From a virus (taxonomy: Duplodnaviria; Heunggongvirae; Uroviricota; Caudoviricetes): DNA of 12,065 nt. Shown here in pieces: positions 242 through 12,065 of the stretch. Location of the stretch: the IMG/VR virus record IMGVR_UViG_2579778856_000001, one strand, 5' to 3'. The notes beneath the pieces were generated by a model that did no database searches, was not told where the DNA came from, and saw nothing but the letters and a program-made list of their open reading frames with translations. The translations under genes and the position numbers were made by a program. The first letter of the stretch is position 1; every line of letters begins with the position of its first letter.

Positions 242-395
242 GTCCCTTCTGGTCAAAATGGACGAAGAAATGCTCTGCTTCTTCGACAGCAACGGGCGAA
301 CCACCATGCCCCGTAAAGCTTTCTCCCTGCGTACTGGCGTAACCCGCCGCCAGCTGTTTCCAGACGCCATTTACTTCATTGAACGGGAGTTCTGA
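210..395 (+). CDS. Short ORF (61 aa), stop overlaps the RBS of the RadC-like gene; possibly the 3' remnant of a gene disrupted by the upstream IS
   Basis: ATG at 210, stop TGA 393-395, one nucleotide before the RadC ATG at 397. Reading frame is open from 192 and passes through the putative IS end (229-241). No recognisable domain. Confidence 0.3.
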   Translation: MATYGGQFTLTSLLVKMDEEMLCFFDSNGRTTMPRKAFSLRTGVTRRQLFPDAIYFIEREF

Positions 396-396
396 C

Positions 397-849
397 ATGA
401 CCATGTTTACCCAGCGTGAAACCCGTATCCTTGACCAGGCGCGTGACATTATTAGCCGGTACTACCAGCGTGGGGTTCAACTCTGTTCCCCTGATGATGT
501 TCGACGGTGCGTGATGGTTGAGCTGGCACCGCTTGAACATGAAGAGTTTGGCATCATCCTACTCGATAATCATAATCAGCTGCTGCACCGCGAAATCCTG
601 TTCAGGGGTACGCTAAACTCGGTCAGCGTTCACCCCCGTGAAGTTATTAAGCGTGTGCTGAAACATAACGCCGCCGCCGTCATCCTTGTCCATAATCACC
701 CCAGCGGCGAGCCTGAACCCAGCCGGTGTGACATCCAGTTGACCAAAAAGCTTCAGGAGCTGCTGGAAATACTGGATGTGCGGTTACTTGATCACTTTAT
801 CGTGGCAGGAACTGAAACGGTGTCGATGGCTGAGCGAGGACTGGTGTGA
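397..849 (+). CDS. RadC-like JAB/MPN-domain protein (UPF0758; YeeS/YfjY/YkfG-like)
   Basis: 150 aa from ATG 397 with SD GGGAG at 385-389 (the track's 379 start is a TTG extension). Contains the JAMM signature HNHPSGEPEPSRCD (H-x-H-x7-S-x2-D) with an upstream Glu. Size and motif match the RadC-like proteins of E. coli cryptic prophage islands. Confidence 0.85.
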   Translation: MTMFTQRETRILDQARDIISRYYQRGVQLCSPDDVRRCVMVELAPLEHEEFGIILLDNHNQLLHREILFRGTLNSVSVHPREVIKRVLKHNAAAVILVHNHPSGEPEPSRCDIQLTKKLQELLEILDVRLLDHFIVAGTETVSMAERGLV

Positions 850-895
850 TGCTGAAAGTTACTTGGTTTAATGTACGTTATTGCGGGTTACGCGC

Positions 896-1825
896 ATGAG
901 CAGGACAGCGTTGCGTCAGGTCGTGCCGGTGGTGCAAACCACCGTGTTCGATGCGTATATTGTCGGTCTGGCCCCCTCGGGACGGCGAGGTATCACCAGC
1001 CTGTTAAACCGCAGCGCCAGCATACTTAAACACGGTGCGGATGCAGCAGACTATCCGTGGGAACAACTTAACTACGCCGCCGTTGCCAAAGTGCGCGCGG
1101 CACTGCTGGATGACGGTTACGCCGTGTCATCGGTCAACATGGCGCTGTCAGCACTCCGGGGCGTAGCGCAGACGGCCTTTAACCTCAATTACATGGATGC
1201 CGAAACGCTGGCACGTATCCGGTCAGTTAAGCGCGTGAGCGGCGATGTCCAGCGCAAGGGAAGGGCGCTGGGCAGGCAGGAAATCCGGGTACTGATTCAG
1301 GCTGCAAAACAGCATCCGCAATCTGTACGGCGCTGTCGCGATGTCGCCATTGTGCTGATGCTTTGCGGAACGGGCCTGCGGGCCGGGGAACTGGTTAAAC
1401 TTGAGCGCCGGGACTATGACAACGGCATCCTGACGGTGAGGCAAGGGAAGGGGCGTAAATACCGTGAAATTCACGTGGCGGATGCGGTGGACAAGGCTAT
1501 TCGTGCGTGGCTGAAAGTTGGCGCAGACGAGGCTGACAGTGCGTTGTTTAGGCGAATTCAGCGCAGTGGTAAGGTCGCAAGCCAACCGCTGACTACGACC
1601 GGGTTAACGGGTATCCTGGCTGAGTTACAGCAAACGGCAGGTATAGCACGTTTTACCCCGCATGATATGCGGCGCACCTTCATCACCCGTTTGCTGGAGC
1701 AGGGCGTGGATATCAATACCGTCCGCCAGTTGGCAGGCCACAGCGACATATCCACGACGACGCGCTATGACTGTCGTGGTGATACTATGAAGATCAGTGC
1801 CAGCAAGCGCATCAGATGTTTTTAG
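896..1825 (+). CDS. Tyrosine-type site-specific recombinase/integrase (XerC/D-like, short form, 309 aa)
   Basis: Complete catalytic signature in order: R in GLRAGEL, K in RQGKGRKYREIHV, H-x-x-R in HDMRRTF, H in AGHSD, Y in TTRYD. ATG 896 preferred over the track's TTG at 881. Stop TAG 1823-1825. Confidence 0.85.
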   Translation: MSRTALRQVVPVVQTTVFDAYIVGLAPSGRRGITSLLNRSASILKHGADAADYPWEQLNYAAVAKVRAALLDDGYAVSSVNMALSALRGVAQTAFNLNYMDAETLARIRSVKRVSGDVQRKGRALGRQEIRVLIQAAKQHPQSVRRCRDVAIVLMLCGTGLRAGELVKLERRDYDNGILTVRQGKGRKYREIHVADAVDKAIRAWLKVGADEADSALFRRIQRSGKVASQPLTTTGLTGILAELQQTAGIARFTPHDMRRTFITRLLEQGVDINTVRQLAGHSDISTTTRYDCRGDTMKISASKRIRCF

Positions 1826-2426
1826 CAGTTGAGGCGTTGCCAGACTCGGTTTCAGTTTCATCTTCAGCACTCAACCGCGCGTACTTTTGATTCTGGATGT
1901 TAATTTGTGCATTGATATTTTCAGGCTGAAGCATCCACGCAACATCCTCACGCGCCCATTCTTTACCGTCAGAGAGTCGTTTTAACCGGGGTTTCCATAT
2001 TCCATACTCATTAAGTTTTTCTGCTACCGAAGCATATTTCTCACGATCTGACTCCCCCGTATGAAGCTTGTCAAAACGACCTTTTACAAGCTGGTAAACA
2101 GTATAGATTTCCAGTGCCTTAGGGGACCTGGCCGGGACTATCATGGGGTGTTCCTCCGGCCTATAAATCCCGTTTGGCTCTCCCTCATTGAGCAGGTCAT
2201 TAAACATGTGGTTCACGCAGGCACTCAGCACATCTGCCGCTTTCTCCGCAGCGAATTTATCCGGGCTAAAACCCGCTCCCGTCAGTTTCCGGGCAATCAG
2301 TGCCAGTTTTTGCCGGGTATCCCGTCCCAGATAAAGCTTCTTCTCCAGAAATTCAAAGACCTCGTTACTGCTTTTCCGTTCCCGGTGGCATCTGGCGTCA
2401 GCCTTGTTGCTTTGGTTACCAATCAT
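1812..2426 (-). CDS. Hypothetical protein (204 aa), unknown function, divergent from alpA
   Basis: Long minus-strand ORF. Second ATG (2426-2424) is preceded by a perfect SD GGAGGTG (plus 2429-2435), so start MIGNQSNK... is preferred over the ATG at 2438. 3' end overlaps the integrase 3' end by 14 bp (convergent). Acidic C-terminal tail. No motif I can assign. Confidence 0.6.
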   Translation of the reverse strand: MIGNQSNKADARCHRERKSSNEVFEFLEKKLYLGRDTRQKLALIARKLTGAGFSPDKFAAEKAADVLSACVNHMFNDLLNEGEPNGIYRPEEHPMIVPARSPKALEIYTVYQLVKGRFDKLHTGESDREKYASVAEKLNEYGIWKPRLKRLSDGKEWAREDVAWMLQPENINAQINIQNQKYARLSAEDETETESGNASTAKNI

Positions 2427-2445
2427 AGTCACCTCCATGACAGTG

Positions 2446-2648: not shown

Positions 2649-2846
2649 ATGAACACCAACCGTATTTTGCGTAAAAAAGAGGTACTTCATCTGACGGGGA
2701 ACTCGTCAGCGACGTTGTACCGACTCATCTCGAAAGGATTCTTTCCTTTGTCAAAGAGGCTAACGGGCGACAATGGCCGGGCGGTAGGCTGGCTGGAGAG
2801 TGATATCAATAACTGGGTTAACAGCCGTATGCAGGCGGGAGAATGA
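2649..2846 (+). CDS. alpA: AlpA-family (Vis/excisionase-like) helix-turn-helix transcriptional regulator
   Basis: 65 aa, SD AAGGAG at 2636-2641. RILRKKEVLHLTG-x-S-x-ATLYRLI...FP...G-x-RAVGWLESDINNWV aligns with the recalled E. coli CP4-57 AlpA (RILRLPAVIQKTGMARATIYDWL...FPKKRMLGVKSVGWIEAEIDEWL). Confidence 0.8.
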   Translation: MNTNRILRKKEVLHLTGNSSATLYRLISKGFFPLSKRLTGDNGRAVGWLESDINNWVNSRMQAGE

Positions 2847-2847
2847 A

Positions 2848-3315
2848 ATGAAAGAGATAAAATCGAAAACCAGTTCTGCGAAAAAAACGCTGGTTCCTTG
2901 GTTCGAAACTATGGGGAAACAGGTTGGTTTATCACAAGAAACGATATCAGCAGTGTTAAAGGAGCAGCGTTTACGGATACGTAAGCTTAACTACGCATCT
3001 GCATATACAGTGTCCAATATTCTCATACAGGATTGCGGCGGGGCCGATGACATGTGGAGCAACTACGCTAAACTGGCGCTTATCCTTGAGCGTTGTAAAT
3101 ACATTCCCTGCGGGAGCAGGGCCTGTGCATATTGTTCTACCGCTCAGCAATTACATTATCAGGGGGTGGATGTAACCGGGGAATACGCTTTATATCAGTT
3201 GCCTGAGTTATTTTTAGATTTTTTAGAAACAAACGACAAAAATTCCTCTTATCATTGGGATTACAATAAGTTAGTTGAGCGGCATGAAGATGCTCAGGCG
3301 AGGTCATTCGGGTAA
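2848..3315 (+). CDS. Hypothetical protein (155 aa) with N-terminal HTH-like segment and C-terminal Cys4 cluster (C-x4-C-x4-C-x2-C)
   Basis: ATG 2848 lies 1 nt after the alpA stop (GGGAGAATGAAATG; translational coupling); the track's 2800 start overlaps alpA. Cysteines at residues 83, 88, 93, 96 (CKYIPCGSRACAYC). GC about 40-45 percent, lower than flanks. Confidence 0.6.
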   Translation: MKEIKSKTSSAKKTLVPWFETMGKQVGLSQETISAVLKEQRLRIRKLNYASAYTVSNILIQDCGGADDMWSNYAKLALILERCKYIPCGSRACAYCSTAQQLHYQGVDVTGEYALYQLPELFLDFLETNDKNSSYHWDYNKLVERHEDAQARSFG

Positions 3316-3346
3316 TAGCCATTTCTGTATGGTGAAAAACTGACAT

Positions 3347-3381
3347 ATTACCCTGCCACTGCATTTTGGTGGCAGGGTAAT
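3347..3381. promoter_or_regulatory. Perfect 13-bp inverted repeat (ATTACCCTGCCAC, 9-nt spacer, GTGGCAGGGTAAT); operator or RNA hairpin between the two Cys-cluster genes
   Basis: Seen directly, 32 bp after the upstream stop and 22 bp before the next ATG. No T-tract immediately 3' on the plus strand, so not a canonical intrinsic terminator. Contains the 12-mer CCACTGCATTTT that recurs at 4335-4346. Confidence 0.4.
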
Positions 3382-3402
3382 CAATACAGCTAGGAATATT
3401 AA

Positions 3403-4257
3403 ATGAACGATTCTTATTACTTCAGAACATCTGACCCGGATTACATTCGTCACGCACCGTCAATGCTTGAGATTTTAAGTAAAGCATTCCCCACTATTAT
3501 TACCCAGCAGGAAAGTGAGTATGAACTGCAGCGTCTTAACCATTTACTAAATAAACTGAAAGGCAGCAATCGCTGCTACAACATCATTGCTCAAAAACTA
3601 AGGCAGTGCAGAAACGGATCTCCATGCAACAGTCTTATATGCCCGCATTGCCAGCGGGAACGCATTCTGGCGCAACTGGCTATGTTGCATGTCTTGCCGG
3701 GGAATTCAGCAGAATACGTGGGAGTGGTCCTGTTTTTCAACAAGGATACGCAAACTCCGCCGCCATGGAAGAACATTGGGGCGCTCAGGGCGCAAATCGG
3801 TCGTTATAAGCAGAGGATAAGCCGGGTACTTAACCGCCTGGGGTACGCCGGTCCGGCCACAGGCACCTTCAGTATGATGCGACATATGCCTGATGGCCCA
3901 GAAGAGCGTATTTTCTGGGTTCCACAGTTGTGTTTGTTCCTGCCCAATGACAGTACGTTGATTAAGGGGCTAAAAGCGCATATGTCGCGAAGTGGTGGGG
4001 CATTCATTGATGCATCGACGCTTAACACACCAGTGATCGTGCTCAGGTATAAAGATCCCGCGAGACTGATTTCATGCGCCCTGAATCCAGTCTGGCACAC
4101 AGCAGATTACACACTGACTGATAAAGACGCTCTTGTTAAGTCAAGAATGGAGCTACTGAAAGGCCGGACACTGTTAAAAAGTCTGCTTACCCTGGACTCA
4201 CTCGGAACAGGTGTCGTTTCTTTTTCGTTTGGGCAACCCCCAGGGAAAGTGCACTGA
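3403..4257 (+). CDS. Hypothetical protein (284 aa) with zinc-ribbon-like Cys4 cluster (C-x5-C-x4-C-x2-C)
   Basis: ATG 3403 with AGGA 7 nt upstream. Cys cluster CRNGSPCNSLICPHC at residues 69-83 (nt 3607-3651). No family assignable by eye. Confidence 0.65.
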   Translation: MNDSYYFRTSDPDYIRHAPSMLEILSKAFPTIITQQESEYELQRLNHLLNKLKGSNRCYNIIAQKLRQCRNGSPCNSLICPHCQRERILAQLAMLHVLPGNSAEYVGVVLFFNKDTQTPPPWKNIGALRAQIGRYKQRISRVLNRLGYAGPATGTFSMMRHMPDGPEERIFWVPQLCLFLPNDSTLIKGLKAHMSRSGGAFIDASTLNTPVIVLRYKDPARLISCALNPVWHTADYTLTDKDALVKSRMELLKGRTLLKSLLTLDSLGTGVVSFSFGQPPGKVH

Positions 4258-4269
4258 TTTACCGGTAAT

Positions 4270-4370
4270 GCAGCAACTGCAATGCACTTTTGCTGTTGAT
4301 TAAATTGCAGTGGAACGACGAATAACAGCGGCAACCACTGCATTTTCGTTGTTGTAAAACTGCAAAGCTT
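4270..4370. repeat. Iteron-like repeat cluster: four copies of ACTGCA(A/T) (one inverted), an 8-bp perfect inverted repeat, and ATGCACTTT twice
   Basis: ACTGCAA at 4276-4282, inverted copy at 4305-4311, ACTGCAT at 4337-4343, ACTGCAA at 4359-4365. IR TGCAGTGG 4306-4313 / CCACTGCA 4335-4342. ATGCACTTT at 4282-4290 and again at 4393-4401. Confidence 0.4.
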
Positions 4371-4519
4371 GCCAGTGATTTTGATGGCGCTGATGCACTT
4401 TAACATTCCAACTGTCTCGATTTTAACGCAACCGTCTGTTTTCTGCAGGGGCTCACGGATGCCTCTGCACACCCGATCCTTACCATCAACTGACGAGTTA
4501 GCGCATCTGTGAGGGCTTT

Positions 4520-4833
4520 CTGTGTTTCTGTCAGTGAATATTCTACACACAATGGGGGGAGCGGTCAGCGAGCACCATTGCCATTGAGCGCAACGGAGAG
4601 CTTGGGGACATGCAGCACTACGGAGGCTTCATCTCCTTCTCATGTCATTAAACGATACGGCGAACGAGCGCAGCGAGTGAGGGAAGGCGTCAGCCTGAAC
4701 AGGGGGAAAGATTTGCGACCGGAGTGGAGCAAATCATGGGCGGAGCCCATCCTCGCGACTGGGGTTTTGACTTTCGAATTGCCCAGCGTTGAGTTTGGTT
4801 AATGTAGTGAGACGAGGATGCTGAGAGGGGACC
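4520..4833 (+). other. Purine/G-rich non-coding segment; candidate structured 5' leader or small RNA upstream of the polymerase-like gene
   Basis: No ATG-initiated ORF of plausible codon usage. The only track ORF here (4509-4802) starts with GTG and is rich in rare codons (AGG, CGA, GGG). Runs such as GGGGGGAGCGG, GAGGGAAGGCG, ACAGGGGGAAAG. Tight hairpin ATGGGC-GGA-GCCCAT at 4736-4750. Confidence 0.25.
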
Positions 4834-6231
4834 GTGAGTACTGAAAAGGATTATCCAGTGAAGATCCCTAAGTGGGTTTATGACCGTATTACTGAAATAA
4901 CGGATTATGTCGTGGGGGATACGCAATGGGCTGTTACCCGGCGGCAGACAGTACGGTGGTTCCTGGCTCACATATGGCTGGAAACAGACGATGATGGCTG
5001 GACTATATGCACTGTCCGGGATATCCGTAGCAGCTATGCCAGTCTCCTGGGACAGTGTGAAATTAGTTACCAGGGGGAGTGCTTTATGTCCACGCTAACT
5101 GATTTCCTGCCGACACTTTCGGATATTGAATTTCGTGCAGGAAAAGCGAGCAAAGACCCGGAAAAGCGTAGAGCCAGTGCATGGCGGTTCAACCCCCTGC
5201 TGCCTGTGTGTGATGAGTCTGCCAGGGGTAAGTTAAATCTGGTTGACTTGGATACTGGTGAGTCTGTTAGTTTTAGAGCTCTGCTTCAGGGGAACGGGAA
5301 AGCTCCTGGGCATGCGATAGATGTAGAGAAACGCCAGACGGCCCTAAAACAAACGGAAAAGGACTTCTTGGCCAAAGTTGGGCGGGGGCGCATGAGTATA
5401 CAGTTTGTGAAGGAATTGCGTAGCCGTGAGCCGGATCACTATTACCGCGCAGGAATACGCAGCCTTAACCATCTCTACAATGGCAGGATTGAGGGACAAT
5501 ATGTCACTTACGACCATCATTATCGTCTGACGTTTGGAGGGCGGTATTATGATCAAGCTTTCCAGAATCTGCCCAATGAGTTCAAAGCTAAATTTCGGAC
5601 CGGGTTACTCAACTATGACATCGAAGCGTGCAATCTGGCCTGTCTGAACCATCTGTTCAGACAGTATGACGTCGATTATCGTGTGAAGTCATCGATATAT
5701 AAAACCATGATGGAACATACCGGGCTGACCCGTAAACAGTGCAAACAGATGGTCCATACCACCACCTACAGAATTGGGCGTGTGACTATTGGTGTTAATG
5801 ATGGCCTTGGGGCAAAAGTGTATGGATGGTGCGGTAACAGCAAAAAAAAGGCGCTAAAGATTTTGCGTTGGTGGAACCGTTATATCAGTCCATTGAAATC
5901 TGCGCTTGAGTCATTGCTGGAACGTGTGCATGGCGCACACCGCAAGAGTTGTTCATCACCGCGTAACTATCACAGGTACGCTAATGAAGTCGGATTAATA
6001 CTGGATCTTAATAGTGAGGTGTATCAGCGTGAAAAGACTCACCATCATCAATATGCGCGGAATAAGGCACTGTTGGCGTTTATGATCTGTGGTGTGGAGC
6101 AGGCGTATATCCGTGAGGTTGTCAGTATGAACCCTGGTCGTGTCTGCATGCTGGATCATGATGGGGTAGTGGCAACGGGCGCGCTTTCACTACCGGACTG
6201 GCGTGGTTTCACGATGAAAGTGAAGGACTAG
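4834..6231 (+). CDS. Uncharacterised protein (465 aa) with family-A / T7-like single-subunit polymerase motifs A, B (O-helix) and C; putative minimal right-hand polymerase
   Basis: GTG start at 4834 with SD GAGAGGGGA immediately upstream and in-frame stop at 4822-4824. Motif A-like NYDIEACNLACLNHL (res 260-274; compare Pol I DYSQIELRIMAHL). O-helix-like RKQCKQMVHTTTY (R300, K304, H308, Y312; compare Pol I R754-K758-F762-Y766). Motif C-like CMLDHDGVV (res 438-446; compare Pol I MQVHDELV). A-to-B and B-to-C spacing (about 42 and 137 aa) resembles Klenow and T7 DNA polymerase. Motif-level inference only. Confidence 0.65.
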   Translation: MSTEKDYPVKIPKWVYDRITEITDYVVGDTQWAVTRRQTVRWFLAHIWLETDDDGWTICTVRDIRSSYASLLGQCEISYQGECFMSTLTDFLPTLSDIEFRAGKASKDPEKRRASAWRFNPLLPVCDESARGKLNLVDLDTGESVSFRALLQGNGKAPGHAIDVEKRQTALKQTEKDFLAKVGRGRMSIQFVKELRSREPDHYYRAGIRSLNHLYNGRIEGQYVTYDHHYRLTFGGRYYDQAFQNLPNEFKAKFRTGLLNYDIEACNLACLNHLFRQYDVDYRVKSSIYKTMMEHTGLTRKQCKQMVHTTTYRIGRVTIGVNDGLGAKVYGWCGNSKKKALKILRWWNRYISPLKSALESLLERVHGAHRKSCSSPRNYHRYANEVGLILDLNSEVYQREKTHHHQYARNKALLAFMICGVEQAYIREVVSMNPGRVCMLDHDGVVATGALSLPDWRGFTMKVKD

Positions 6232-6355: not shown

Positions 6356-7090
6356 TGTGAGTTCAACGGGTCGATGCAACGCTGTCCCTAATCAAGGGGG
6401 ACGTTGCCATGAAACGAAGAACTCGTATTAACTACACGCCAGAGCAAAAGGTGATTATTTGGGACAGATATAAGCAAGGTGATTCCCTGCATGATATCCC
6501 CCAGAATGTTCGACAGATTTCACTCTACTATCATGCCTACAATCCACCAGGCCGGTGGCTACCGTCCTCCCGTGCGAAAGCGGCACCGGTTAGCGTTTTC
6601 GCTTGATGAAAAAGAGGAGATATCCAGAGGACTGGTAGCAAAACGCATCATCAGGGACATCGCTGCTAAATTATCAATAGCTCCCTCAACGATTAGCCGC
6701 GAGATCAGGAGGCACGGCGGTGCAAAACAATACCGTGCAGCAAAAGCCGATCCTGCTGCGTGGGAAAATGCTCTGAGACCAAAACCTTGCAAGCTAATTG
6801 AAAGCCCCACATTGTGTAAAATCATTGCAGAGAAGATGCATCAGGACTGGTCGCCGGAACAAATTGGCGGTTGGCTAAAACGCTGTTATCCCGATAATCA
6901 GGAAATGCATGTGTCACATGAAATGATTTATAAAACGCTTTTTATACCAACCCGGGGAGCTTTAAAAAAAGAGCTGCAGCAATGCCTCAGAAGCGGAAGA
7001 GTAGTGCGTAGATCCAAAACCTCATCACTTAAAGTAAACAGAGATACATTCTGGTCACGAATGCCCGGTTGTTCGTGCTTTGCGTTTTAA
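6356..7090 (+). mobile_element. IS30-family insertion sequence remnant (left inverted repeat plus 5' part of the transposase gene; 3' half deleted)
   Basis: Left end TGTGAGTTCAACGGGTCGATGCAAC at 6356-6380 resembles the recalled IS30 IRL (TGTAGATTCAATTGGTCAACGCAAC). Transposase ORF begins 53 bp inside. Element ends abruptly; no right repeat before the membrane protein gene. Confidence 0.7.
6409..7090 (+). pseudogene. IS30-family transposase, frameshifted near 6498-6502 and truncated (N-terminal HTH region only, DDE domain missing)
   Basis: Track ORFs 6409-6606 and 6479-7090 are consecutive pieces of one IS30-like transposase in two frames. MKRRTRINYTPEQKVIIWDRYKQGDSLHDI then, in the other frame, FDRFHSTIMP...RKRHRLAFSLDEKEEISRGL...APSTISREIRRHGG...KPCKL...WSPEQIGGWL...EMIYKTLF. 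Frame switch coincides with a C5 run. Product about 200 aa versus about 380 for intact IS30 transposase. Confidence 0.75.
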
Positions 7091-7182: not shown

Positions 7183-7227
7183 AGTTTGTGTCATTCTGAC
7201 CCATCTTTATACCGCGACGGTGGAAAC

Positions 7228-9798
7228 ATGGATGAGCTGCTAACCCTTGGCTGCATTGCTTTATTCTTCGCACTGGTGGTGGTTCCCATCCTCGCGATTA
7301 TCGCGCTCAGCCGCAGCACGGCTGTTCGTTCTGAGCTGGCGACCCTGCGTCGCCGGGTGGAGGTGCTTGAGCAGCGCGGTGTGACTGAAGCACCCGCCAC
7401 AGTGGTAACAACTGTGCCGCAGAGTGTTTCGCAGATGGTTGTGCCTGTTGAAACGTCTTCGCCTGCGGTTAACATCGTGCTGTCGGAGCCTGTGGCTGAT
7501 GTCACGCCTGAGTCCGTTGACCCCTGGCGTCCACAACCGAAGCCGCAAAACGAGGCGCTACCCACACCAGCGGTCGAACAATCTTCCGCTTTTGGTGGGG
7601 TGATGTCGTCCCTGGTGCGCTGGTTTATGCAGGGCAACCCGCTGGCAAAGCTGGGTATTCTGCTTCTCTTCCTTGGCTTCTCCTTCCTGCTGCGTTATAC
7701 GGTTGAACACTCCCTGTTCCCGCTTGAGCTACGTCTGGTGGCGACTTCGCTGTTTGCGATTGCCCTGCTGGTAGTGGGCTGGCGATTGCGGCATAAACAG
7801 CTGGTTTATGCGCTGATCATACAGGGTGGAGCTACGGGGACGCTCTATCTCACCGTTTTTGGCGCATTCTGGCTCTGGCAGATGCTGCCGATGACGCTGG
7901 CGTTTGCATTACTGGTGGCGATTTGCGCGGCGAGCGTGGGACTGGCGATTATGCAAAAAGCGCTCAGCCTCGCGATGCTGGCAAGTATCGGTGGCTATCT
8001 GGCACCGCTGTTGCTTTCCACCGGCGGCGGTAGTCATGTGGCGCTCTTCTCTTTCTACCTTCTGCTTTCCGTCGGTATTCTCGCCATCAGCATCTGGCAA
8101 CACTGGCGCGAGCTTAATCTGCTTGGCCTGTTATTTACCTTTGGTATCGGCGGTCTTTGGGGACTCGACGGCTATCGATCAGAGTATTACCTGAGCAGTC
8201 AGCTTTTCCTGATAGCCAATACGATCATTTTTGGTGTGCTGAGCGTGGCGCTATCGCTACGAGCACAGGAGAAAGGTAAGCAGATTATTGATGGCGTGCT
8301 GTTGTTTGCATCGCCGCTGGTCGGTTTTGGCATGCAGTACGCCATAACCCGGCATATGGAATATGGTCCGGCGCTTAGCGCGCTGGGTTACGGCGGTTTC
8401 TATCTGGCGTTAGCATGGCTTGCATTGCGTCGCTATCCCTCTTTGGGGAGGCCGCTGGTGCTGGCGGCGCTGGCGCTGGGTGGGGCATTTACCACGCTCG
8501 CTATCCCACTGGCGCTTTCGGCCCGCTGGACGGCGATGGCCTGGGCGCTGGAAGGTCTCGGCATCCTCTGGCTGGGCGTGCAACAGCAGCAGCGGCGTAT
8601 GAGCTATAGCGGCACTGCGCTGCTGGTGCTGGCAGTGTGCAGCGCGCTGTGGGCGCAGATGAACGGGATGAGCGCGCTTTCTCTGGTGCTAATCTTTGCC
8701 GTACTCAGCCTCAGCTGGCTGGCTGCCGCCTGGCTGTGGCGCAATATTCAGTTGCAGGGTAGTTGGGTTCTGTTGGCTGGCGGTTTGATCTTCTGGATAA
8801 TCGCGCTCATTGGGGCATCGCAACTGGTGCTGAAAAAGGACTCGCTGGTGCTGTCTGGCGTGCTGGCGTTAATGGCGATATCGGTCTGGGGCTGGCGGAT
8901 TGTCTCTGGTCGTCTGGCCTGGTGGGAGCTGGATGTCAGCAAATGGTTGCTGTGGCCGACGATGCTGGTGATGCTGCTGTCTCAAATTTCACAACATGAG
9001 ATTTTTGCTGCGGGCTGGCAGAATCTGGCCTGGTGTCTGGCGTTACCCGCTGCGGGGGCATTGCTCTGGCGTGATGCTGAGACGTTGCCGCCGCGCCTCT
9101 CCAGACTGGCGCACCTTTCACTCTTCTGGATGATTCTGCTCGCGCTGGCGGCGGAGCTATTCTGGTTTGCGCAAGATCTGCCATGGGGCATGGCGGCGTG
9201 GGGCTCCGGCCTGATGATGGCCGCGGGGGGCCTGCTCATCTTTCTCGTTCATGAGGCGGTTCATCGTCAGCTATGGCCATTCCGAAGCTGGCCCGCACTC
9301 TACGCTTCTCAGGCGATGATACCGGTAGCTGCGGTATTGGTTGTTCTGCTAGTACTGACGAATTTGCAGGATGGCGTAGTTTATCGCCAGACCTGGCTGC
9401 CGCTGGTGAATCCACTGGAGGAGGGGGCCGCTTTTGCGCTACTGGGACTCATTGTATTTTATCGCGTTTCGCAGCGCTTTTTCCCGGTGCAGATTTCGGT
9501 ATGCCGTCCCTGGCCGCTCATTGCACTGCTGGCGCTTAGCTTCTGGTGGCTGAATGGCATCCTGCTGCGCGCATTGGCCTGGTACGGCGAAGTGCCCTGG
9601 AGCGCGGAAACACTGTGGCATTCGCGGCTGATTCAGACCTGTTTTGCCCTGTTCTGGATGCTGGCGGCATTAGTGGTGATGCTACGTGCGACCCGGCGTT
9701 GCTCACGTCGCGAATGGCTTTGTGGATCCGTATTGTTAGGGATTGTTATTGTGAAACTGATGTTGGTAGACAGTGCGCGTGGCGGCGGCCTGGCATGA
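7228..9798 (+). CDS. Large polytopic inner-membrane protein (857 aa); N-terminal TM helix, coiled-coil, Pro/Val/Thr-rich linker, then about 20 predicted TM helices; family unassigned
   Basis: ATG 7228 preceded by GGTGGA (the track's 7186 start is a TTG extension). Long hydrophobic stretches rich in L/A/G/W separated by short polar loops. GC well above the island genes (sampled 60-bp stretch about 68 percent). Stop TGA 9796-9798. Confidence 0.8.
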   Translation: MDELLTLGCIALFFALVVVPILAIIALSRSTAVRSELATLRRRVEVLEQRGVTEAPATVVTTVPQSVSQMVVPVETSSPAVNIVLSEPVADVTPESVDPWRPQPKPQNEALPTPAVEQSSAFGGVMSSLVRWFMQGNPLAKLGILLLFLGFSFLLRYTVEHSLFPLELRLVATSLFAIALLVVGWRLRHKQLVYALIIQGGATGTLYLTVFGAFWLWQMLPMTLAFALLVAICAASVGLAIMQKALSLAMLASIGGYLAPLLLSTGGGSHVALFSFYLLLSVGILAISIWQHWRELNLLGLLFTFGIGGLWGLDGYRSEYYLSSQLFLIANTIIFGVLSVALSLRAQEKGKQIIDGVLLFASPLVGFGMQYAITRHMEYGPALSALGYGGFYLALAWLALRRYPSLGRPLVLAALALGGAFTTLAIPLALSARWTAMAWALEGLGILWLGVQQQQRRMSYSGTALLVLAVCSALWAQMNGMSALSLVLIFAVLSLSWLAAAWLWRNIQLQGSWVLLAGGLIFWIIALIGASQLVLKKDSLVLSGVLALMAISVWGWRIVSGRLAWWELDVSKWLLWPTMLVMLLSQISQHEIFAAGWQNLAWCLALPAAGALLWRDAETLPPRLSRLAHLSLFWMILLALAAELFWFAQDLPWGMAAWGSGLMMAAGGLLIFLVHEAVHRQLWPFRSWPALYASQAMIPVAAVLVVLLVLTNLQDGVVYRQTWLPLVNPLEEGAAFALLGLIVFYRVSQRFFPVQISVCRPWPLIALLALSFWWLNGILLRALAWYGEVPWSAETLWHSRLIQTCFALFWMLAALVVMLRATRRCSRREWLCGSVLLGIVIVKLMLVDSARGGGLA

Positions 9799-9991
9799 TC
9801 AGACATGAGATAAATGAAGGGGGATCCGTGAGATAAATAACGAATTGGAGTGGGTTAACATGGGTTCTGGTGAACAGAACTGAAATTCTTTTCCGCTATA
9901 CGATAGATAAGTCGGGCATTGAAATCATCCTTCCTGGCAACTTAGAATCGAGTTTGCTGAAACATGACCCGCAACAAAAAGGATGATTCCA

Positions 9992-10153
9992 ATGACTACT
10001 CAAAACAATAAGCATGATAGCCTGGATTACTCAGAAAAGCCCAAAAGCAAGCACATCGTGACGTTCGAGCGCGATTCCGGTAGAAAAGGAGAATCGTCTT
10101 CCTCTGCCAATAAAACCACTATGCCGGCAGCCCCTGCCCCAGGGAAAAAATAA
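9992..10153 (+). CDS. Possible small hydrophilic protein (53 aa), K/S-rich; not in the ORF track because under 60 aa
   Basis: ATG 9992 with AAGGA 9 nt upstream. MTTQNNKHDSLDYSEKPKSKHIVTFERDSGRKGESSSSANKTTMPAAPAPGKK, stop TAA 10151-10153. Alternative in-frame ATG at 9983. Confidence 0.3.
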   Translation: MTTQNNKHDSLDYSEKPKSKHIVTFERDSGRKGESSSSANKTTMPAAPAPGKK

Positions 10154-10156
10154 ACA

Positions 10157-10789
10157 TCATTCATCGTTCGTTGCACGAACGCGCCTGATCTCCACTCTGG
10201 CAATCTGATCTGCTGGAATATAGGTTGCCAGAGCTCCCCAGTACTTATCAACCACGCCTTTATACTCTTCCCATTCGTTACTGCCTGAAGGGCTGCTGTG
10301 CGTGACGTAAAGAACCATATCGCCTTTATTCCCCAGGGTAAACGGACCGTTAGGCCACTCTTCAAAGTTCCCTGGCAGCCGTGACATCATACCGGAACCA
10401 TCGCGAAGAATCACTCTGACCTCGGTAACGCTGAAGCCTGTTTGATCAAACATTGCCTGCCATGCTGAGCTGGTATCGTCAGACCATGAAATATCATTAT
10501 TCCACAGTAATCTGTACATCCATTTGCGACCGTACCTGCGCCACCACGCACCGCATGTAAGGGCACACAGAAGTGCTGGTGGTGTTGCCAGCCAGGCATT
10601 CAGACCTGCCCACATAACAGCCTGGTAAGCCATCATTGCTGTCAGGCCAAAAATCAGCGAAGAAAAAGTCACCTCAATGGGCTTGTGGTGATCCTTCAGT
10701 CCCACATTCGCAATAAAATACCCAATATAGCCACTGGTCAGGGTCACCAGTGTTGCCCATGGCAGATTTAACAACGAAACGTCAAACAT
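10157..10789 (-). CDS. Membrane protein (210 aa): three predicted N-terminal TM helices plus a soluble C-terminal domain; unknown function
   Basis: Start at the ATG for MFDVSLLNLPW... (plus 10787-10789) preceded by SD GGGAG. The track's longer start is a TTG lying inside the upstream terminator hairpin. Sits directly downstream of the mor terminator. Confidence 0.65.
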   Translation of the reverse strand: MFDVSLLNLPWATLVTLTSGYIGYFIANVGLKDHHKPIEVTFSSLIFGLTAMMAYQAVMWAGLNAWLATPPALLCALTCGAWWRRYGRKWMYRLLWNNDISWSDDTSSAWQAMFDQTGFSVTEVRVILRDGSGMMSRLPGNFEEWPNGPFTLGNKGDMVLYVTHSSPSGSNEWEEYKGVVDKYWGALATYIPADQIARVEIRRVRATNDE

Positions 10790-10827
10790 ATTTTCTCCCT
10801 GCATCCTGAATACTAAAGAGAGAGCAT

Positions 10828-10861
10828 AAAAAAAGCACGGTAAGGGGTCTACCGTGCTTTT
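10828..10861 (-). terminator. Rho-independent terminator (bidirectional hairpin) downstream of mor
   Basis: 9-bp stem AGCACGGTA / TACCGTGCT (10834-10842 and 10850-10858) with 7-nt loop, flanked by an A7 run at 10828-10834 (a U7 tract on the minus-strand transcript) and TTTT at 10858-10861 on the plus strand. Confidence 0.6.
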
Positions 10862-10903
10862 ATACAATAAGGAGATTTTTGAAAGGACTTTAACAAGCAG
10901 GAA

Positions 10904-11302
10904 TTATCTGGATTTGTTAACGTCTTTCGTCTCCTCTGGCAGATCTTCATCAAACAACCTGCCCTGCATCCGATCCAGTTCTTCTTTTCTGACCCGCTTA
11001 ACCACGCTGTAGACCCACTGAAGCGAAACACCAAACTTGCGGGCCAGTTCGTGGTGGTTGCGTCCGTTAAACTCCCTGAAGATTTCCCGGTCGCGCTGAC
11101 TGACCTTCCATACCATGCCCATCGGGAAATAAACGTTTTGCCCGCCCCAGACCTGCATCATTCGGTTCGCGACGGCCTGACCAATCTGGTCGGCAACTTC
11201 GGGCTCAATATCAATAATCTCGCGAACGGTCTCAGAGGTATGCTGTGCCAGTTCCACCAGGAGTTCCGGCCCCTTACTTCGAAACTGATTCAGGTCGCTC
11301 AT
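10904..11302 (-). CDS. mor: Mor-family transcriptional activator (phage Mu middle operon regulator-like)
   Basis: 132 aa. WGGQNVYFPMG...RDREIFREFNGRNHHELARKFGVSLQWVYSVVKRVR aligns with the recalled Mu Mor core (GGGQVYIPRG...RD...FNGRN...EL...YGV...VY...R). Confidence 0.75.
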   Translation of the reverse strand: MSDLNQFRSKGPELLVELAQHTSETVREIIDIEPEVADQIGQAVANRMMQVWGGQNVYFPMGMVWKVSQRDREIFREFNGRNHHELARKFGVSLQWVYSVVKRVRKEELDRMQGRLFDEDLPEETKDVNKSR

Positions 11303-11726
11303 GTTTGACTCCCGCAGCTCTGCGCTGCCACTTCTTCAGTTTCTCAATAACACTGCTTGCCTGTTCAGTACTGAGCCAGCGCAGGGCGCTGATGCCCGTT
11401 TCCCGCTTGATCCACCGCGCTAATGCATTTTCTGAACGGTCACGAACAATGCCGGCAGCAGCCATTTCAAGCCATAGCGCACGGATTTTCCTGGACTGCG
11501 GATGGTTATCCAGCGGTAAACCGGAGCTGGCTTTTCCGGCAGGCTTAACGCGAAAGCCTTTCCTTTTCATGGATTCCAGCACGCAGTTTAGTTGTGTGGT
11601 ATCCATTCCTTTGGTTGAGGCTTTACCGGTCAGCCCCTGTAACATCTGGCGGTAGGTGTCTTCATCCATACCCAGTTCATTACGGGCAATATGAATGAGC
11701 TGGATAAGACGTTGTTTAGTCATCAT
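11274..11726 (-). CDS. Mu gp16/GemA-like protein (DUF1018-type), upstream partner of mor
   Basis: RLIQLIHIARNELGMDEDTYRQMLQGLTGKAS...SRKIRALW pattern as in Mu-like prophage gp16/GemA proteins. 3' end overlaps the mor start by 29 bp. Start chosen at the ATGATG pair preceded by AAAGGAG rather than the track's 11765. My reading here was off by one base relative to the track; track frame used. Confidence 0.6.
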   Translation of the reverse strand: MMTKQRLIQLIHIARNELGMDEDTYRQMLQGLTGKASTKGMDTTQLNCVLESMKRKGFRVKPAGKASSGLPLDNHPQSRKIRALWLEMAAAGIVRDRSENALARWIKRETGISALRWLSTEQASSVIEKLKKWQRRAAGVKHERPESVSK

Positions 11727-11931
11727 CGTTGCTCCTTTTACCTGCGCCACCGATATAATCGACATATAAAGGAAGCGCCACAGGCCAGCACAGGAACATC
11801 ACCGACCAGCTAATCCAGTAGCCAGCACCACTGTAACGTGAATAAAACCCTGAACGGCGGTGCAGTTCAGCAGTACACCAACCGACAAAACAATACCAGA
11901 ACAGGGCACATACAACAGATTCAGCCGTCAT
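11716..11931 (-). CDS. Possible small membrane protein (about 71 aa, two TM helices) overlapping the gemA-like start
   Basis: Track ORF 11716-12045 starts with TTG; first ATG gives MTAESVVCALFWYCFVGWCTAELHRRSGFYSRYSGAGYWISWSVMFLCWPVALPLYVDYIGGAGKRSNDDD. Stop overlaps the gemA-like start (coupling). Weak SD. Confidence 0.3.
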   Translation of the reverse strand: MTAESVVCALFWYCFVGWCTAELHRRSGFYSRYSGAGYWISWSVMFLCWPVALPLYVDYIGGAGKRSNDDD

Positions 11932-12065
11932 TCTGAATATCCCCCCAACTGATATGAATATTACGGGCAGCAATGACAGGGTCGTTATTCCACCATGCAC
12001 CTGACATGTATTTTTCAACCTGTTCGCGTCCGGCAATAACACCAATTGTGATCCCCGGCCTGACG

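Follow-up and report, generated by a model that had tools for sequence, protein, structure and literature searches.

A minimal PolA-like protein, very probably a TV-Pol-type polymerase, in an alpA-bearing defence island of Escherichia coli

The DNA analysed here (12,065 nucleotides, filed as IMG/VR virus record IMGVR_UViG_2579778856_000001; its full length is called the window below) is a piece of E. coli chromosome, in which a gene for a 465-residue protein lies in an integrase-bearing defence island at ychF that is bounded by a P4-type integrase. We consider it very probable that this protein is catalytically active as a right-hand polymerase of the Pol I / T7 class and belongs to the TV-Pol (transposon-virus polymerase) superfamily, because of its fold, the correspondence of its motifs, the invariance of residues across divergent sequences and the purifying selection acting on its gene. 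The protein is an unannotated, widespread member of the almost uncharacterised TV-Pols, and minimal PolA-like TV-Pols had already been predicted in 2008. A first-pass annotation, made on the sequence alone, had called a family-A or single-subunit polymerase at this place; in essence that call was correct, and what it describes is not new in kind.

Fold, motifs and conservation of the protein

The open reading frame (ORF) is present as first described, at positions 4834–6231 on the plus strand with a GTG start, and the three peptides singled out in its product carry the right residue numbers, with NYDIEACNLACLNHL at 260–274, RKQCKQMVHTTTY at 300–312 and CMLDHDGVV at 438–446. The GTG start, which had been called unusual, is not remarkable, and a good Shine-Dalgarno sequence, GAGAGGGG, precedes it. 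An alternative in-frame GTG start lies at 4855 (V8) with AAGGA before it, and distant homologs begin there with ATG (MKIPEW...). The gene and the parts of its product are listed here, with the evidence for each in brackets.

4834..6231, plus strand: polymerase gene, 465 residues, very probably minimal PolA-like and of the TV-Pol type (ORF, homologs, dN/dS, model)
4858..5193, plus strand: N-terminal alpha+beta winged-helix-like domain, residues ~9–120, a candidate DNA-recognition domain (model)
5236..5469, plus strand: linker strands and putative small helical thumb, residues ~135–212, with helices 166–180, 189–197 and 202–212 (model)
5485..5574, plus strand: beta-hairpins with LTFGGRYYD...QNLP, residues 218–247, in which R237 and Q244 are invariant in 57/57 sequences (alignments, hhalign)
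5602..5655, plus strand: motif A, residues 257–274, GLLNYDIEACNLACLNHL, with D262 as predicted catalytic Asp and N267 at the steric-gate position (alignment, hhalign, model)
5722..5778, plus strand: motif B or O-helix, residues 297–315, GLTRKQCKQMVHTTTYRIG, with R300, K304, H308 and Y312 (alignment, hhalign, model)
6055..6117, plus strand: long palm helix with ARNKALLAFMICGVEQAYIRE, residues 408–428; superfamily consensus LAHxxQGxE (alignment, local alignment)
6142..6174, plus strand: motif C beta-hairpin, residues 437–447, VCMLDHDGVVA, in which H442-D443 correspond to Pol I H881-D882 and G444 replaces E883 (alignment, model, hhalign)

The structure of the protein is predicted with pLDDT 90.2 and pTM 0.87, and the model has a Klenow-type thumb-palm-fingers fold. 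All three motifs lie on the expected elements of this model, which supports the palm-fingers core that had been deduced from motif order and spacing. In the model, short strands follow the winged-helix-like domain, beta-hairpins at 218–240 bear R237 (within strands 229–240), a strand at 259–263 ends at D262 and leads into a helix with the topology of motif A, and the helix 300–312 of a helical fingers subdomain stands at the O-helix position. Further on, a 30-residue helix (402–432) bears G420 and E422, and a beta-hairpin (437–440/444–447) holds H442-D443 at its turn, which is the topology of motif C. The three helices between residues 166 and 212 may be read as a small thumb, from their position relative to the palm and from the published description of TV-Pols (PMC2579912).

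A fold search against predicted viral structures ranked highest the full-length, uncharacterised proteins encoded by jumbo phages of Dickeya and Erwinia (E=1e-14, TM 0.61), followed by annotated phage PolA polymerases and a 1,019-residue "replication origin-binding" fusion protein of an algal virus; Sputnik V13 was not recognisable among these viral-structure matches. DNA polymerases scored above RNA polymerases in both fold searches.

In a collection of 5.8 billion proteins we found 78 homologs at E<=1e-3, all from Enterobacterales, with 45–100% identity to the window protein; all are "hypothetical", and none carries a Pfam domain. An alignment of 23 full-length members of this close family (45–93% identity) has as invariant positions NYDI at 260–263, R300, K301, K304, V307 and T310, and MLDHDG at 439–444. 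Two further invariant blocks, LTFGGRYYD at 232–240 together with Q244-N245-P247, and GVEQAYIRE at 420–428, are equally as diagnostic as the three motifs noticed first. A hidden Markov model (HMM) search of 1.84 billion representative proteins added about 50 relatives of 430–600 residues (E 1e-15 to 1e-3), which match profile positions ~215–458 only.

The resulting superfamily alignment comprises 57 sequences, which, save for two close-family members, are 13–22% identical to the window protein. Across it R237, Q244, D262, K304, G420 and E422 are invariant, and Y230, G236, Y261, N384, H442 (55/57), D443 (56/57) and G444 (56/57) nearly so; Gln stands at position 419 in 49 of the 57 sequences and Tyr or Phe at position 312 in 51. 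Judged from this alignment, such invariance is far beyond chance. The superfamily consensus, GRLY..G..LQN.P...K.AAL.G...YDI..CH..IL ... K..L....YGA ... LAH..QG.E ... LL.HDGF, reads in order and character as PolA motif 2, motif A, motif B, the Q849-G850 motif and motif C.

Standard models do not detect this family. Pfam, NCBIfam, PADLOC and PDB sequence and profile searches with the window protein gave no significant match, and a PHROG search gave nothing significant, its weak "DNA polymerase I" match having E=0.1 over residues 250–327. The 57 superfamily members had no match beyond noise to Pfam, NCBIfam or PADLOC models, and the Pfam model DNA_pol_A (PF00476) fails to detect either the window protein or any of the 57 relatives. 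No confident alternative family assignment, which had been named as a possible refutation, appeared in the family, sequence and profile searches.

Profile-profile alignment places the residues on known catalytic positions. With hhalign, the superfamily profile matches E. coli Pol I with E=6.8e-6 (1.8e-6 for the core alone) over Pol I residues 649–780, pairing R237 with R668, Q244-N245 with Q677-N678, P247 with P680, K304 with K758 and Y312 with Y766; the Pol I segment holding R668 and Q677 reads TGRLSS..PNLQNIP. Against T7 DNA polymerase the match has E=2e-4, and D262 is paired with the catalytic D475, N267 with the steric-gate residue E480 and R300 with R518, followed in motif B by K304 with K522, H308 with Y526 and Y312 with Y530. 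In Pol I numbering, D262 falls at D705, N267 at E710 and H308 at F762. With a relaxed threshold the Pol I alignment runs collinear to the C-terminus, bringing C419-G420 onto Q849-G850 and H442-D443-G444 onto H881-D882-E883; this C-terminal part has low posterior probability alone, yet agrees with the topology of the model. The C-terminal 91 residues by themselves gave nothing significant against Pol I, T7 DNA polymerase or T7 RNA polymerase (RNAP), and the best local alignment of the ARNKALLAFMICGVEQAYIRE helix, to Pol I RAAINAPMQGTAADIIKR, is not significant alone. The alignment with T7 RNAP is not significant (E=0.51), and a local match to WAHEKYGIES of T7 RNAP was rejected as coincidental, its spacing to the HD motif not fitting.

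These alignments bear out the proposal that D262, K304, Y312 and H442/D443 land on catalytic positions, namely D705, K758, Y766 and H881/D882 of Pol I, and the spacing of the Arg, Lys and aromatic residues in motif B holds as well, with R300, K304 and Y312 aligned to R518, K522/K758 and Y530/Y766. The resemblance of the first peptide to Pol I motif A holds too, but the alignment written for it, with N260 on D705, was off by two, the predicted catalytic Asp being D262, the residue already named in the checks suggested at that time. The placement of R237 and Q244 on Pol I R668 and Q677 is a correspondence beyond the motifs noticed first.

The protein departs in several ways from canonical family-A enzymes (E. 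coli Pol I Klenow, Taq, T7 gp5, Pol theta, Pol nu), to which it is ~10–13% identical. It has neither a 3'-5' nor a 5'-3' exonuclease, and its thumb and fingers are much smaller. Nuclease family models in Pfam and NCBIfam gave no match, and the N-terminal 215 residues are taken up by the winged-helix-like domain and the small thumb. The earlier statement that exonuclease and large N-terminal domains are both missing was therefore right about the exonuclease and overlooked the domain at ~9–120 and the thumb at ~166–212. Compared with the motif B pattern RxxxKxxxFxxxYG, R300, K304 and Y312 (variable in the close family) are present, His (H308) stands at the Phe position, which is F762 in Pol I, and R313 replaces Gly. 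The steric-gate Glu is absent, position 267 being Asn, Ser or Cys in the close family and His or Gln in the superfamily.

The loss of the steric-gate Glu and of F762, together with an HDG motif C, is compatible with relaxed or reversed sugar discrimination, and the substrate may be dNTPs or rNTPs (deoxyribo- or ribonucleoside triphosphates). The closer fold and profile matches of the protein are DNA polymerases. T7-like single-subunit RNAPs, the small N4 RNAPII included, give no significant profile match, and the window protein lacks their promoter-recognition elements; T7 RNAP is about twice its size and its fold match is weaker than those to DNA polymerases. The initial caution that a DNA polymerase and an RNA polymerase cannot be told apart here still stands.

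Selection on the gene is purifying. Compared with an 89%-identical allele from another E. coli strain, dN/dS is 0.17 overall, 0.14 in the C-terminal core and 0.21 in the N-terminal part, which argues that the gene is functional and not decaying. It is present in 591 of 5,426 complete E. coli genomes (~11%), including the pandemic ST131 lineage; identity is at least 99% in 504 of them (many ST131 strains) and 80–95% in 87. Public annotation of the gene varies, some RefSeq records giving truncated versions, with 381 residues in strain H105 (L016:4753-5898), 433 in P0001 and 462–465 elsewhere. The short versions are mis-started, because the N-terminus KIPKWVYDRI is conserved and confidently folded (pLDDT >90). 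Only in strain MB1341 does a copy of ISEc52 lie inside the polymerase gene and split it (L001:15192-16361).

Membership of the TV-Pol superfamily

The TV-Pol family was defined by Iyer, Abhiman & Aravind in 2008 (Biol Direct 3:39; PMC2579912) as proteins of 400–600 residues from mobile elements and viruses. Their core is a minimal PolA/T7-RNAP one, in which the thumb has two helices, a beta-hairpin presents an Arg that is absolutely conserved, the palm holds two highly conserved Asp residues and the fingers carry RxxxK and a conserved Asp; they are never linked to nucleases (PMC2579912). They are either fused to D5-like helicases or equipped with an extra N-terminal domain; those of the latter kind adjoin integrases, resolvases or IS605/IS630 transposases and lie in hot spots rich in restriction-modification (R-M) operons, and the TV-PolN domain of the integrase-linked subset was predicted to be all-helical (PMC2579912). 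The same study predicted that TV-Pols combine primase and DNA polymerase activity, and named among them the enzymes of phage Ma-LMM01, Sputnik V13 and the SCCmec polymerase (PMC2579912). Two recent PolA surveys, a 2023 reclassification and a 2026 survey of bacterial polymerases, do not mention TV-Pols, and in no source searched is the Enterobacterales clade annotated as TV-Pol.

The window protein resembles this description in size (465 residues, with the core at ~166–465), in the Arg hairpin (R237 in 57/57) and in the two palm Asp residues (D262 in 57/57, D443 in 56/57). In the fingers, R300-x3-K304 is present, with K304 in 57/57 and the Arg column variable across the superfamily; the "conserved fingers Asp" was sought in the family alignments and not located. 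It has no nuclease domain and no conserved nuclease neighbour in the islands examined, and its surroundings are also of the TV-Pol kind, with a tyrosine recombinase at 881–1825, the edge P4-type integrase at ychF, and type I R-M, retron and OLD/UvrD cargo. It differs from the helicase-fused kind in that no D5-like helicase is fused or adjacent to it. Its N-terminus is modelled as alpha+beta and winged-helix-like, in contrast to the all-helical prediction for TV-PolN, though it aligns with the N-terminus of a Ma-LMM01 protein, gp030, and its conserved partner gene is alpA.

The link to a named TV-Pol runs through phage Ma-LMM01. In this genome the classical PolA is a split pair, gp178/gp180, found directly with E. 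coli Pol I, and the sole match of the superfamily HMM (hmmsearch) is gp030 (E=1.5e-21), a 506-residue hypothetical protein adjoining IS605/IS200-type transposases; gp134, a "putative primase", is matched neither by Pol I nor by the superfamily HMM. Since gp030 is the sole non-classical PolA-like ORF of Ma-LMM01, it is by elimination the presumptive TV-Pol of PMC2579912. Against the superfamily profile gp030 scores 98.8% probability and E=1.1e-16 over 382 columns, which cover the N-terminal region and every motif. A profile built from intermediates only matches the window family (99.9%, E=6e-36, 430 columns) and the gp030 family (99.5%, E=6e-23, 405 columns), and individual intermediates are matched from both families' sides; a large-database search with gp030 itself returned only its close relatives. 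Because intermediates link the two families over the full length of the window protein, we place the window protein in the TV-Pol superfamily.

Relatives also occur in phages. Large lytic phages of Erwinia, Dickeya and Yersinia, namely Erwinia phage pEa_SNUABM_39 (L008:5134-6750) and 22 other jumbo phages (see also L011, L012, L019, L020), have an unannotated homolog with ~24% core identity. Neighbouring genes of the phage homologs encode UvrD-type helicases, PD-(D/E)XK nucleases, a DnaG-type primase, a 5'-3' exonuclease, a DHHA1 (RecJ-like) protein and Thy1. As a canonical PolA coexists with the homolog in these phages, and also in Ma-LMM01, the homolog appears to be an additional polymerase there and not simply "the replicase".

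The polymerase gene in the ychF island

The backbone of the island begins with HTH_35, FtsK-gamma, DUF2787, RadC and an optional small tyrosine recombinase; next come a minus-strand gene of ~200 codons, alpA, up to two Cys4 ORFs and the polymerase gene. Variable cargo follows 3' of the polymerase: a retron (Ec67) with ABC-3C in ST131, and elsewhere OLD/UvrD, type I R-M and others. The window holds these backbone features upstream of the polymerase gene.

379..849, plus strand: RadC-like JAB domain gene (Pfam PF04002, E=6.7e-46), which recurs in related loci
881..1825, plus strand: internal tyrosine recombinase (Pfam Phage_integrase, E=1.4e-31)
1812..2438, minus strand: divergent ORF of ~200 residues (208 here) that always accompanies alpA, a possible regulator (by position)
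2649..2846, plus strand: alpA, an AlpA-family helix-turn-helix (HTH) regulator/excisionase and conserved upstream partner of the polymerase (Pfam PF05930, E=2.6e-12)
2800..4257, plus strand: two optional ORFs between alpA and the polymerase, of 171 residues (RefSeq start 2848) and 284 residues (3403–4257) (paralogs)
4258..4833, no strand: spacer of 575 bp 5' of the polymerase gene, the place of ISEc52 insertion in typical ST131 genomes

The tyrosine recombinase is 56% identical to the integrase of a related island and 24% identical to a pipolin IntP2. Its 3' end overlaps that of the convergent minus-strand ORF by 14 nucleotides (1812–1825), as it does in the ST131 annotation. Counterparts of the minus-strand ORF, recognised by position, have 192–249 residues in related loci, and its sequence is unlike that of the counterpart in a related E. 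coli island, L017. In the close-family loci of P0078 and P0074, and also in Klebsiella and Gilliamella, alpA precedes the polymerase gene.

The optional ORFs belong to a small paralogous family (window 2800–3315 and 3403–4257; L004:3719-4480, L004:4602-5459, L003:5673-6419 and L017:15295-16167) of 171–290 residues, with an invariant C-x5-C-S-x2-C-x2-C and a P-x-L-x-L motif and no match to a known family. They are absent from the P0078 and P0074 loci. The 284-residue ORF was considered as an HUH rolling-circle Rep, its homolog in a related island reading WMPHLHLLMP, and was rejected because the His pair is not conserved among the paralogs. The Klebsiella ORF in this slot (381 residues) gives a weak Rep_trans hint (E=0.017).

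Three lineages whose polymerases are less than 20% identical (Klebsiella 18% and Gilliamella 16% to the window protein) share the order RadC, minus-strand gene, alpA, polymerase and have different cargo after it, which places the polymerase gene in the backbone and not in the cargo. In the Gilliamella metagenome contig (L018:4025-10330) a 2,101-residue ORF with no Pfam match on record occupies the cargo position directly 3' of the polymerase homolog. L017 (strain FDAARGOS_1251, NZ_CP069445.1 568455-596577) has the same backbone and a homolog of the 284-residue Cys4 ORF without a polymerase: the Cys4 ORF runs straight to a YobI/KAP-type NTPase, followed by DarTG with a 3'-5' exonuclease. RADAR (RdrAB) and a CbtA/YeeU toxin-antitoxin pair are also part of this island, which lends itself to comparison as a natural "minus polymerase" case.

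In the spacer upstream of the polymerase gene we looked for iterons, an Rfam match and a plus-strand promoter-like site, and found none above background; the sole consensus promoter match is at 4568–4540 on the minus strand. The island in the window is free of the IS, whereas a typical ST131 genome such as strain H105 has ISEc52 in this spacer (L016:2671-4501), and a copy just upstream of the polymerase gene could change its expression.

Directly downstream of the polymerase gene, at 6409–7090, lies a frameshifted transposase remnant with an N-terminal HTH_38, which RefSeq records as a partial, frameshifted pseudogene. The stretch from ~9790 to 12065 is the end of a Mu-like transposable prophage, with GemA (11274–11765, minus strand) and Mor (10904–11302, minus strand), inserted in the 3' end of a gene for a DUF2339 membrane protein (7186–9798); the same prophage end adjoins rfaH, phnP, yfaV or flgJ in other genomes.

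A probable role in island replication and its alternatives

From gene context and precedent, we lean towards a role for the protein as an active TV-Pol-type polymerase that serves as the island's own primase-polymerase after alpA-controlled excision. It would be expressed from the alpA-controlled module of the integrative defence island, and would synthesise, and probably also prime, DNA on the excised island. In such an enzyme D262 of motif A and D443 of motif C would bind the metals in the palm, R237 and Q244 would reach from the beta-hairpins into the minor groove of the primer-template, and R300, K304 and Y312 on the O-helix of the short fingers subdomain would bind the incoming nucleotide; the polymerase would work with no proofreading or 5'-nuclease domain. 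Such a role would be akin to that predicted for TV-Pols and to those of CcPol-MP in SCCmec and piPolB in pipolins.

The first precedent is CcPol, which with its small partner MP in SCCmec is a PolA-type, dNTP-using primase that carries out template-dependent synthesis and can also prime de novo (Bebel et al. 2020, PMC7581432). Like the window protein, it has a catalytic domain of PolA type and lacks a functional proofreading domain, and its gene adjoins those of site-specific recombinases within an integrative element. CcPol stands much nearer to canonical Pol I (CHEAP subfamily, PMC10201439) and keeps three exonuclease helices; it depends on the OB-fold partner MP to prime, and its gene shares an operon with that of the Cch2 helicase. 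CcPol retains the equivalents of Pol I E710 and F762 as E174 and F225 (PMC7581432), whereas the window polymerase has N267 and H308 at these positions and an N-terminal domain of its own. Across seven island loci we found no conserved small partner ORF or helicase flanking the polymerase.

The second is architectural. Enterobacterial pipolins are described with an IntSXT integrase at the edge, then DUF2787, a WYL protein and orphan genes; a second integrase, IntP2, is followed by an excisionase beside the primer-independent PolB (piPolB; Redrejo-Rodriguez et al.), and a distal module contains defence genes that can be exchanged (Mateo-Cáceres et al. 2024, PMC11551731). Islands of similar build that lack the polymerase, "piPolB-less pipolin-like islands", are on record as well (PMC11551731). 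The pipolin of E. coli strain M15 runs from tRNA-Leu through an Arm-type integrase, DUF2787, WYL, IntP2 (302 residues), an HTH protein (66 residues), a 212-residue ORF and an 866-residue protein with a weak DNA_pol_B_2 match to a type I R-M system. Its order of integrase, HTH excisionase/alpA, small ORF or ORFs, polymerase and cargo is that of the window, and both island types have an edge integrase and DUF2787 as well. The core proteins are related at superfamily level only: the integrases share 24% identity (E=4e-9), the HTH proteins match with E=0.002 and the edge integrases with E=8e-5. The polymerases differ, piPolB belonging to family B and the window enzyme being A-like, as do the integration sites (tRNA-Leu and ychF); PolB is absent from the window and the related islands examined. 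The parallel, with a PolA-like enzyme in the piPolB slot, is one of architecture and does not speak for common descent. By the logic of non-homologous displacement, an equivalent job is supported, not proven.

Several observations weigh against the role we favour, or against the assignments beneath it. The polymerase is dispensable for island maintenance, since L017 keeps the backbone and the Cys4 ORF without it, and in the islands examined the gene has no helicase, SSB-like (single-stranded DNA-binding) partner or recognisable origin (iterons) beside it. Jumbo phages with a homolog also encode a canonical UDG-Exo-Pol PolA, in one case with a DnaG primase. The parallel with pipolins is architectural, the core genes being alike at the superfamily level only, and CcPol was, as of 2020, the only characterised TV-Pol (PMC7581432). 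The identification of gp030 as a TV-Pol rests on elimination, and a direct comparison of shallow profiles of the window and gp030 families is not significant (E=0.21). Among the motif residues, Y312 varies in the 23-sequence alignment (Tyr in 16, Asn in 4, Phe in 2, Cys in 1), the Arg of RxxxK is invariant in the close family and variable across the superfamily, and Gly replaces E883 in 56/57 sequences.

Polymerases such as DRT reverse transcriptases act in defence, and the window protein might likewise be an effector of immunity or conflict, encoded by the first cargo gene, and would then make a nucleic-acid product, or copy or block invading DNA, when a phage infects. Its gene directly adjoins variable defence cargo (type I R-M, OLD/UvrD, retron Ec67, ABC-3C), is missing from a related island with an otherwise intact backbone, and has very divergent alleles in the same slot, as is typical of conflict genes. 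We nevertheless think this unlikely: no family member (0/57) matches a PADLOC model beyond noise, the position after alpA is fixed while the downstream cargo changes, homologs stand in the replication modules of lytic jumbo phages, and a dN/dS of 0.17 gives no sign of diversifying selection. A somewhat smaller chance falls to an accessory repair, gap-filling or translesion polymerase without a role in replication initiation. It would account for the coexistence in phages with a canonical replicase and sometimes a DnaG primase, for phage neighbours such as PD-(D/E)XK nucleases, the 5'-3' exonuclease, the RecJ-like DHHA1 protein and UvrD-type helicases, and for the missing proofreading domain; the fixed place after an excisionase-type alpA and the piPolB parallel point instead to the element's own life cycle, and the islands examined show no link to SOS or damage genes.

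Equally improbable is a very small single-subunit RNAP or RNA-primer synthase, which would use rNTPs, recognise template or promoter through the winged-helix domain, and transcribe island genes or lay RNA primers. DNA polymerases outscore RNA polymerases in both fold searches, the Pol I and T7 DNA polymerase profiles match significantly and that of T7 RNAP does not, and CcPol, the sole tested relative, prefers dNTPs (PMC7581432); judging by size, no T7-type specificity loop or promoter-binding domain would fit into 465 residues. Least credible is a catalytically dead polymerase fossil kept as a DNA-binding or regulatory protein of the island, a scenario we regard as very unlikely. The replacement of E883 by Gly, the variability of Y312 in the close family and the failure of standard polymerase models to detect the protein would suit it, and vestigial Pol components have been noted in some Pol-SSB pairs of mobile genetic elements (Rice 2023, PMC10061031). 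However, both metal-binding Asp residues, the O-helix Lys and the primer-template Arg and Gln are invariant or nearly so at 13–22% identity, which speaks for catalysis and is hard to explain otherwise, and the Gly at E883 is a family feature and not decay, because 56/57 sequences share it.

A broader form of the island primase-polymerase reading, which we put forward as speculative and rather doubtful, is that ychF-type islands are the family-A counterpart of pipolins, that is, integrative defence platforms that replicate themselves and are marked out by a stand-alone PolA-like enzyme able to work without a primer. A helicase fusion or SSB partner would then be unneeded because the enzyme's own N-terminal winged-helix domain would hold the template, and chains may start with ribonucleotides because the steric-gate Glu is absent.

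The 2008 proposal saw in the TV-Pols minimal relatives, possibly ancestral-like, of Pol I and T7 RNAP (PMC2579912), and the window polymerase stands in the best model organism available and in an informative position within a defence island. Because the gene is intact in ~11% of complete E. coli genomes, ST131 included, it offers an easy, genetically tractable model of these enzymes. Knowing its product would test whether a PolA core of ~300 residues can prime, what sets sugar selectivity without the steric-gate Glu, and whether such defence islands replicate autonomously after excision, as proposed for pipolins. A name would also be gained for a gene that the records examined list as a "hypothetical protein", often with its start truncated.

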